NCBI RefSeq assembly: GCF_055900595.2 | Contig: NZ_CM148325.1 | Strand: one strand, 5' to 3' | DNA length: 64,000 nucleotides | Shown here: positions 49,701-52,700 of the stretch, one piece after another | Position numbering within the stretch: position 1 is the stretch's first letter | Layout: each line of letters begins with the position of its first letter | Program-made: the position numbers

Positions 49701-52700
49701 CATCAGCGCTATCTCTGCTCTCACTGCCGTAAAACATGGCAACTGCAGTTCACTTACACCGCTTCTCAACCCGGTACGCACCAGAAAATCATTGATATGG
49801 CCATGAATGGCGTTGGATGCCGGGCAACCGCCCGCATTATGGGCGTTGGCCTCAACACGATTTTCCGCCATTTAAAAAACTCAGGCCGCAGTCGGTAACC
49901 TCGCGCATACAGCCGGGCAGTGACGTCATCGTCTGCGCGGAAATGGACGAACAGTGGGGATACGTCGGGGCTAAATCGCGCCAGCGCTGGCTGTTTTACG
50001 CGTATGACAGGCTCCGGAAGACGGTTGTTGCGCACGTATTCGGTGAACGCACTATGGCGACGCTGGGGCGTCTTATGAGCCTGCTGTCACCCTTTGACGT
50101 GGTGATATGGATGACGGATGGCTGGCCGCTGTATGAATCCCGCCTGAAGGGAAAGCTGCACGTAATCAGCAAGCGATATACGCAGCGAATTGAGCGGCAT
50201 AACCTGAATCTGAGGCAGCACCTGGCACGGCTGGGACGGAAGTCGCTGTCGTTCTCAAAATCGGTGGAGCTGCATGACAAAGTCATCGGGCATTATCTGA
50301 ACATAAAACACTATCAATAAGTTGGAGTCATTACCGAGAATTATAACAGCATTGCTGATGTCATTTTTTATTTTACCTGTTCATGCGGGTGTGGTCATCT
50401 ATGGTACGCGTATTATCTATCCAGAAAAAAACAGAGAAGTTCTCGTACAGTTAATGAATCAAAGCAAAAATGCCTCTTTGATTCAGGCATGGATCGATGA
50501 TGGAAACACAACTATCGCGCCAGAAAAAATTCAGGTCCCATTTATTCTCACTCCGCCAGTAAGTCGTGTAGCAGGAGGTTCTGGCCAACAACTAAAAATA
50601 AAAAAATGCCAAACAACTTACCTCACAATAAAGAAAGTTTATTTTATCTAAATGTTATGGACATCCCTCCAAACAACCCACAAAATGCTGGAAAAAACAA
50701 AATTAAACTTGCATTACAAAACCGTATAAAGTTATTTTGGCATCCCGAAGGCGTAGCGCCGGTAGATAAAAAAAGCCTGTCTCAATTAAATATCAAAAAG
50801 AAAGATAATGCCATCTCAATAAACAATGAAACAGCGAACTGGATAACGATTACAACTATCAAAGCCCAAAATGTGAAAGTTAATAATGAAAGTATATTAC
50901 TACCTCCATTTTCTAATAACGAAATTACATTAAAAAATAACAACGCCTCAGAGTATGAACTAACGGTAGTTGATGATTACGGGAATAATATCAATAGTAA
51001 AATCGCTGCAAAATAACAGGTAAAAGTCATGTTAAGGACGACACGATGGGTCGCTGCAATTATTATTTTGTATTCTTTTCCAGGTTATGCTGAAGAAACT
51101 TTTGATACACACTTTATGATCGGCGGCATGAGAGGAGAAAAAGTTTCTGAATATCATTTAGATAATAAACAACCGCTTCCAGGAAACTACGAACTTGATA
51201 TTTATGTAAACCACCAGTGGCGTGGAAAACAAGATATCATGGTCCCAGAGTCACCAACCAAACCATGTCTGCCTGAGGAGCTGTTCACCAAACTGGGGGT
51301 GAAGACCGATAAGATCAATACAGAAGATCATTGTATTTCACTGGATGAAGCGGTTCATGGTGGTCAATATCAGTGAACACCGACTAAATTTAACGATCCC
51401 ACAGGCGTATATCAATGAACTTGAAAGAGGTGACGTTCCTCCGGAAAGTTGGGATCGCGGCATTGATGCTTTTTATACCTCCTATAATTTATAGTCAGTA
51501 TCGCTCTTATGACAGTAATAATAACAGTAATACAGCCAGTTATGGTCGTTTTAACAGCGGATTAAATTTATTTAGTTGGCAATTACACTCTGATGCCAGC
51601 TATAGCAAGCCTGATGATATGAAAGGCACATGGCAAAGTAATACTCTTTACCTGGAACGTGGCTGGTCGCAAATATTAAGCACAGTTCAGATAGGAGAAA
51701 ATTACACATCCTCACTCATATTCGACTCTCTGCGATTTAGCGGAATACGCTTATTTCGCGATATGCAAATGCTACCTGATTCTATGCAGAACTTTACACC
51801 TTTAGTACAAAGTGTTGCGCAAAGTAATGCCTTGATAACGGTTACGCAAAATGGCTACATCATTTACCAAAAAGAGGTTCCCCCGGGACCATTTACTATC
51901 GCAGATTTGCAACTTTCGGGCAGCGGCGCTGATCTCGATGTCAGCATAAAAGAAGCAGATGGTAGTGTTCGTTCCTTTTGGTGCCCTACTCTTCCGTGCC
52001 CAACATGCTGCAACCAGGTGTTTCAAATCTCGATTTTATCGCCGGACGCAGTAAGATATATGGTGTAAATAATCAGGAGGACTTTCTTGAGGCAAATTAT
52101 TTATATGGCCTCAACAATCTTGTGACACTGTATGGCGGTTCGATTTTAACTGATAACTATAATGCAATAACGTTAGGAAATGGTTGGAATACACCGCTGG
52201 GTGCTATTTCTTTTGACGCTACCCGATCGAGTAGTAAGTTATATAATGATAAAATACACGAAGGTACAAGCTATCAGGTCGCCTATAATAAATATCTAGT
52301 GCAAACGGCTACTCGCTTTAGCGTGGCCGCCTGGCGTTATGCTTCGCAGGATTACAGGACATTCAGCGACCATCTTTACGAAAATGATAAACACAATCAT
52401 CATAGTGAATATGATGATTTTTATGATATTGGCAGAAAAAATAGCCTTTCTGCCAATATTATGCAACCTTTATCCACCGGCATAAAAATTGCTCTCAACG
52501 ATGAACAGAACTTATTTTGTACCATTACTTTTAAAAACGTTATCGATGAAAATAAAACATATATATGTCAGTAAAAGGAGTTTACTATGAAGTGGCTTTT
52601 ATTGCTCTCCTTGAGTCTATATTCTTTTATTGTACAAAGTGCTCCCTGTACACTGACTAATGTCGGTGAACAACGTGGAACTTACACTCTAAAACCACTT

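Follow-up and report, generated by a model that had tools for sequence, protein, structure and literature searches.

Organization of the locus

The window (the whole 64,000-nucleotide stretch of contig NZ_CM148325.1, RefSeq assembly GCF_055900595.2, that was analysed) carries a chaperone–usher fimbrial operon on the + strand, set in an AT-rich island with a GC content of 25–42% against about 50% in the flanks. The operon is bordered by rpsT and an EspX1-like gene on one side and by nhaR (53585–54508, − strand) and nhaA (54550–55716, − strand) on the other. Its genes and the element inserted into it are the following.

48973–49506, + strand: major fimbrial subunit gene, intact, 177 aa (Pfam Fimbrial, E 1.5e-8; equivalent to Sakai ECs_0024)
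49568–50335, + strand: IS1, 768 bp, in codon 4 of the chaperone gene; 98.7% identical to K-12 IS1A
50345–51016, + strand: remainder of the chaperone gene after IS1 and the second duplication copy, with a −1 frameshift; intact chaperones have 684 nt
51029–52574, + strand: usher pseudogene, whole, from native ATG to native TAA, with Pfam matches in three frames
52587–53547, + strand: adhesin-like last gene, 319 codons when intact; A8 at 52878–52885 versus A7 in intact alleles

The element in the chaperone gene was identified as IS1 by its length, its terminal inverted repeats, its insA and insB ORFs and a 9-bp target duplication (GAGAATTAT) found at 49559–49567 and 50336–50344. It occurs at this site in none of the ten assemblies that are otherwise 99.9–100% identical to the window over the locus (see below), and is therefore a recent, strain-specific insertion. 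Downstream of it, the two halves of the chaperone lie in ORFs 50322–50651 and 50606–51016, over which the PapD_N and PapD_C matches (Pfam) are split. The −1 frameshift arose by loss of a G within ATAAGAAAAATG, giving ATAAAAAAATG (A-run 50600–50606); this is a base lost from an A-rich stretch and not a change in length of a pre-existing homopolymer. With IS1 in codon 4 and the −1 frameshift, the chaperone is dead independently of the usher. In the adhesin-like gene, ORF 52864–53547 gives a weak Fimbrial match (Pfam), located in the C-terminal half of the gene product. O157:H7 has the same +1 (A8) in a divergent allele of this gene, and one near relative of the window, L004, has G6 instead of G7 at 52832–52838, which restores the adhesin frame.

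The EspX1-like gene (47257–48729), a pentapeptide-repeat effector gene, is intact and encodes 490 aa compared with 473 aa in O157:H7; its exact protein is widespread in public assemblies (400 index blocks). No RNA families were found between 46000 and 57000 (Rfam).

Structure of the usher pseudogene

The stretch 51029–52574 is confirmed as a PapC/FimD-family outer-membrane usher gene whose frames are broken by three small lesions. It aligns collinearly, at 93–94% nucleotide identity, with the intact ushers (2451 nt) of E. coli O157:H7 and strain CUPS03, and its ATG (51029) and TAA (52572–52574) match the start and stop of the intact orthologous ushers. At 1546 nt versus 2451 nt (816 codons) it retains 63% of the length of these orthologues, close to the 60% or so estimated in an earlier sequence-only reading of this DNA. 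The usher-like pieces are real, far beyond chance: PapC_N positions 1–100 of 146 are matched in ORF 51029–51376 (E 1e-16), Usher positions 2–153 of 549 in ORF 51415–52068 (E 1.5e-57) and Usher positions 148–321 of 549 in ORF 51978–52574 (E 1e-44), all in Pfam. The split over three frames described in that reading is borne out by these matches and can be refined to four collinear segments (51029–51366, 51367–51491, 51493–51975 and 51976–52574), the second and fourth of which share one frame. The segments, two of the lesions and a nearby hairpin are listed below; L003 denotes the intact O157:H7 allele.

51029–51366, + strand: segment 1, codons 1–112 plus 2 nt; signal peptide and most of the N-terminal domain
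51367–51494, + strand: segment 2, codons 117–158 in the second frame, ending in TAG 51492–51494; within ORF 51345–51494
51493–51975, + strand: segment 3, codons 159–319 in the third frame; barrel start including the plug region
51976–52476, + strand: segment 4a, codons 320–486, mid-barrel; BLAST HSP end 52476 corresponds to L003 6588
52477–52574, + strand: segment 4b, last 32 codons (end of CTD2) and native TAA; 88% nucleotide identity to L003 7482–7580
51976–51979, + strand: lesion 3, T4 run versus T5 in intact alleles, −1 frameshift
52423–52462, no strand: 16-nt inverted repeat (hairpin), 94% complementary with an 8-nt loop, 14 nt upstream of the 894-bp junction
52473–52476, + strand: lesion 4, junction of an 894-bp in-frame deletion, codons 487–784 lost

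Segment 1 ends at an 11-bp deletion, after which its ORF stops out of frame at TGA 51374–51376. The plug in segment 3 was placed via the intact orthologue, to which the Caf1A plug (3fcg) aligns at residues 248–328. The last ORF (51978–52574) reads across the 894-bp junction to the native stop (C-terminal residues …YICQ), 12 nt before the next gene. Taken as a whole, the gene has no single uninterrupted frame of about 800–880 codons. It does have the N-terminal periplasmic domain (PF13954, PapC_N), which as encoded is interrupted by a frameshift, and it lies in an operon with PapD-like chaperone and pilin subunit genes (Pfam). The shortfall of about 330 codons that the sequence-only reading had placed at the end of the gene is real, but it amounts to 298 codons and is internal (487–784), with the native 3′ end kept.

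Four lesions in the usher

All lesions were mapped base by base against two intact alleles, L002 (CUPS03) and L003 (O157:H7). The first is the 11-bp deletion between 51366 and 51367, which occurred between 9-bp direct repeats: the intact reference reads CAATATCAGTGGGATATCAGTG at this site, and the lost 11 nt are one copy of the direct repeat ATATCAGTG plus GG. The second is an extra T at 51492 (TTTATAG in the window versus TTTA-AG in intact alleles), which shifts the frame and creates the TAG at 51492–51494. The shortened T run at 51976–51979 is the third. Homopolymer frameshifts had been proposed for this operon from sequence; that description fits the T4/T5 slip in the usher and does not fit the other two small usher lesions, and most frameshifts in the operon are something other than simple homopolymer slips.

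The fourth lesion is the 894-bp deletion, which removes exactly 298 codons. Its breakpoints were set by local BLAST and direct reading at L003 6589–7482, and intact alleles show the TCCA microhomology at each of them. The hairpin at 52423–52462, which alignment shows to be present in intact alleles too, may have aided the slipped or illegitimate recombination behind this deletion. Searches with blastn and tblastn found no copy of the deleted 894 bp elsewhere in the window, and the window holds no second intact copy of the usher.

What repair restores and what the deletion removes

The sequence-only reading had named a complete usher after frameshift correction as the outcome that would speak against it. 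When the three small lesions were undone in silico, a frame of 518 codons opened with no further stops, only 518 of the 816 codons of the orthologue. The repaired 518-aa product consists of residues 1–486 (91.8% identity) and 785–816 of the O157 protein, with repaired residues 485–518 aligning to orthologue residues 783–816. Pfam finds PapC_N positions 1–145 of 146 and Usher positions 2–320 of 549 in it, and no PapC_C match at E up to 1.

For comparison, the domains of the intact orthologue are PapC_N 24–159, Usher 176–733 and PapC_C 743–804 (Pfam). It aligns with the full-length FimD structure over residues 42–805 (E about 1e-113), with the FimD and PapC translocation domains (3OHN, 2VQI) over residues 137–651 and with the FimD N-terminal domain (1ZE3, 1ZDV) over residues 43–151. 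Since the intact orthologue could be mapped in this way onto solved pieces of FimD, PapC and Caf1A, the loss can be located within the barrel and C-terminal domains: residues 487–784 comprise about the final third of the barrel, CTD1 in its entirety and some two thirds of CTD2. Of the complete β-barrel with plug (PF00577) the plug is kept and the part from 487 to about 651 is deleted; of the C-terminal domains, CTD1 is gone and CTD2 (PF13953, PapC_C) largely so, as residues 487–784 are absent.

The five-domain architecture of ushers and the role of the CTDs have been reviewed (PMC3960871), and a closed barrel together with the C-terminal domains is needed to take chaperone–subunit complexes from the N-terminal domain (PMC3960871). 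A barrel that is unable to close and has no C-terminal domains would therefore provide no assembly platform, making a strong case from domain content that any product of this gene would be incapable of pilus assembly. The earlier suggestion that no pili could be made even if the homopolymer frameshifts reverted is thus well founded, as 298 residues are still absent after repair. Further support comes from the 11-bp and 894-bp deletions, which slippage cannot reverse, and from the independent loss of the chaperone.

Comparison with other E. coli

By position and sequence, the operon corresponds to the O157:H7 cluster O-island 1 (OI-1; ECs_0019 to ECs_0025 in Sakai): it has the same flanks (rpsT/espX1 and nhaR/nhaA) and high nucleotide identity. 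O-island 1 comprises z0020–z0025 in O157:H7 EDL933 (PMC9387321, PMC10877973). In Sakai, ECs_0019 is an adhesin pseudogene, ECs_0022 the usher, ECs_0023 the chaperone, ECs_0024 the subunit and ECs_0025 espX1, and the gene order subunit, chaperone, usher, adhesin-like is alike in the window and in OI-1. The window usher lies at the same chromosomal site as ECs_0022 (“fimbrial assembly protein,” WP_000946591.1, 816 aa), with which its retained parts share 93% nucleotide and 92% amino-acid identity. The O157:H7 usher is intact; that of the window is interrupted by three frameshifting indels and is without codons 487–784. The ancestral gene would have resembled the FimD and PapC ushers (3RFZ, 6E14, 3OHN, 2VQI) in having an N-terminal domain, a barrel with plug, CTD1 and CTD2; unlike them, the window copy has nothing more than the N-terminal domain, the plug, approximately the first two thirds of the barrel and the last 32 residues, all of it scattered over three frames.

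The locus decays by several independent routes, seen in E. coli HS, in K-12 and in the lineage of the window. In HS (ECHS_RS00110) it is the 5′ part of the usher that is lost instead, and the gene is annotated without an N-terminus. K-12 carries an IS1A, oriented like the window IS1, instead of window positions 47037–53409; the missing stretch starts upstream of espX1 and stops short of the last 138 nt of the adhesin gene. Disrupted chaperone–usher operons are common in E. coli, with 370 of 449 intact across 36 genomes according to Wurpel et al. (PMC3559732). No name for OI-1-type fimbriae was found in the searched text of Wurpel et al. 2013 (PMC3559732).

A match to region 50900–52700 was found in 3651 of the 5426 RefSeq complete E. 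coli genomes. About 1200 of the 5426 contain the full region, about 1775 have no match at all, and most of the other matching genomes retain only the 3′ part of the usher. The fimbrial operon is damaged in most E. coli, and the window usher is a case of ordinary gene decay. The same gene is already annotated as a pseudogene in related genomes, with PGAP, the NCBI annotation pipeline, describing the usher as “frameshifted; incomplete; missing C-terminus” in both carriers of the 894-bp junction that were examined, 2013C-4282 and EC42405.

Relatives sharing the lesions and order of events

Of 5426 complete E. coli genomes, 8 contain a 30-mer that spans the 894-bp junction; this 30-mer has no exact match among GTDB species representatives. 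The usher loci of 2013C-4282 (C6996_RS13745) and EC42405 (FZN31_RS20345) carry the identical 894-bp junction and chaperone frameshift found in the window; compared with these two, the lineage of the window adds the loss in the T run, and IS1 is in the window only. Exact-protein look-ups identified ten independent assemblies that are 99.9–100% identical to the window over the locus, comprising isolate genomes (L004–L007, including AP025754.1) and metagenome or Logan contigs (L010–L015). All ten agree with the window in the four usher lesions, in the −1 frameshift of the chaperone and in A8 in the adhesin-like gene. Such recurrence of identical lesion strings shows that assembly error is not their source.

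The distribution of the lesions gives a partial order. L001, L009 and the window lineage all carry the 894-bp deletion together with the −1 frameshift of the chaperone, and every genome having the deletion also has the frameshift; both would be the oldest events because they are common to this wider clade. The 11-bp deletion is present in L009 and the window lineage and absent from L001, while the additional T is present in L001 and the window lineage and absent from L009. These two lesions are incongruent on one tree, which would imply recurrence or recombination within the pseudogene. The −1 in the T run is confined to the window lineage (the window, L004–L007 and L010–L015) and absent from L001 and L009. 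Being confined to the window, IS1 in the chaperone gene is likely the youngest event. L009 has an additional −1 of its own at reference nt 549; in combination with the 11-bp deletion, this brings the sequence back into frame.

The dN/dS ratio between the remnant and intact alleles is 0.21, and that between intact alleles is only slightly lower at 0.15, so most of the divergence predates inactivation; a gap of this size does not demonstrate relaxed selection.

Several other differences from related genomes were observed in the window. The gene next to nhaA (55968–56944, − strand) has a 268-bp internal frameshifting deletion with its junction at about 56549/56550, leaving two overlapping ORFs (55968–56507 and 56432–56980); in 2013C-4282 and EC42405 this gene has 1245 nt and is annotated as an “IS1/IS1595 family N-terminal zinc-binding domain-containing” or a “cytoplasmic” protein. 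Measured by ileS identity, the nearest complete genome is EC42405 (L017). Between kefF and carB the window has a block of ORFs (19193–32171), which we read as the cai/fix region, where EC42405 has a small lipoprotein gene only. In EC42405 espY1 lies between rluA and djlA; it is apparently absent from the window.

Alternative explanations

Sequencing or assembly errors in a gene that is truly intact could account for the frameshifts and the deletion. Homopolymer indels such as the T4 run and the downstream A8 and G7 runs are typical error sites, and the relative L004 does differ at the G run. However, ten independent assemblies, produced by different projects with different technologies, agree in all four usher lesions, and the 894-bp junction is also present in 8 RefSeq complete genomes, which makes error extremely improbable. 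If the sequence is taken as correct, the operon could be in a reversible, phase-variable OFF state that slippage at simple repeats might reactivate. Both the usher (T4/T5) and the adhesin-like gene (A7/A8) contain runs prone to slippage, A8 is found on two divergent alleles, and a compensating G6 occurs in L004. Slippage can nevertheless not undo the 11-bp deletion, the non-homopolymer +1 T, the 894-bp deletion, the loss of G from the chaperone or IS1, and once all small lesions are undone the usher is still without 298 residues; we regard a reversible state as very unlikely. The length difference itself could be read the other way round, with a short usher as the ancestral form and the 894 bp of other E. 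coli as an insertion. The difference is in frame, and nothing else favours this polarity. Against it, the extra 298 residues correspond to conserved Usher positions 321–549 and PapC_C and align along their whole length to FimD and PapC structures, and among the roughly 1200 genomes that contain the full region only 8 have the short form. Domain mapping rules out the short usher as ancestral, and the chance that it preceded the long one is vanishingly small.

Two further explanations assign a role to what remains. Fragments of the usher could retain residual function, for example as a 115-aa periplasmic product that binds chaperone–subunit complexes of other fimbriae. ORF 51029–51376 still has its native start and signal peptide as well as PapC_N positions 1–100 of 146, and isolated usher N-terminal domains fold and bind chaperone–subunit complexes in vitro (PDB 1ze3, 1zdv). 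Yet the N-terminal domain of this fragment is itself truncated by the 11-bp deletion, its cognate chaperone has been inactivated, transcripts from the operon promoter are probably halted at the IS1 upstream, and dN/dS gives no sign of selection on the fragment. Such a function is highly improbable. The other explanation concerns the adhesin-like gene, in which the A8 frameshift produces a 108-aa ORF (52587–52913) with the same structure as in O157:H7. Judged on gene order alone, this ORF is probably the counterpart of z0021/fmrA, which is reportedly a repressor of flagellar motility in O157:H7. An operon dead for pili might then be kept in part as a regulator through this putative fmrA-like ORF, a prospect that we consider unlikely. 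If it were true, the same +1 slip in two divergent alleles would reflect selection for a truncated product and not decay, and the usher remnant would be merely tolerated upstream DNA.

Implications

We conclude that 51029–52574 is almost certainly a non-functional usher pseudogene of an OI-1-type operon, inactivated by four lesions, and that the strain would make no pilus of that type; no observation argues for function. The ancestral gene encoded an 816-residue FimD-like usher, which lost residues 487–784 through an in-frame deletion of 894 bp between TCCA microhomologies. The other lesions acquired in the lineage are the deletion of 11 bp at a direct repeat, the insertion of one nucleotide giving rise to TAG and the loss of one nucleotide in T5, with IS1 presumably entering the chaperone gene last. 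As no usher can be made, no pilus of the OI-1 type could be assembled, and the locus is drifting towards the complete loss seen in K-12.

For annotation, this means one usher pseudogene with an internal 894-bp deletion instead of three short “usher” ORFs, and the strain should be scored as being without OI-1-type fimbriae. The 894-bp junction is usable as a lineage marker (8 of 5426 complete genomes). Beyond correct annotation the locus matters little, though it is a tidy case of stepwise operon decay that combines microhomology and direct-repeat deletions, single-base indels and IS1 at a site where, in K-12, decay ends as a bare IS1.
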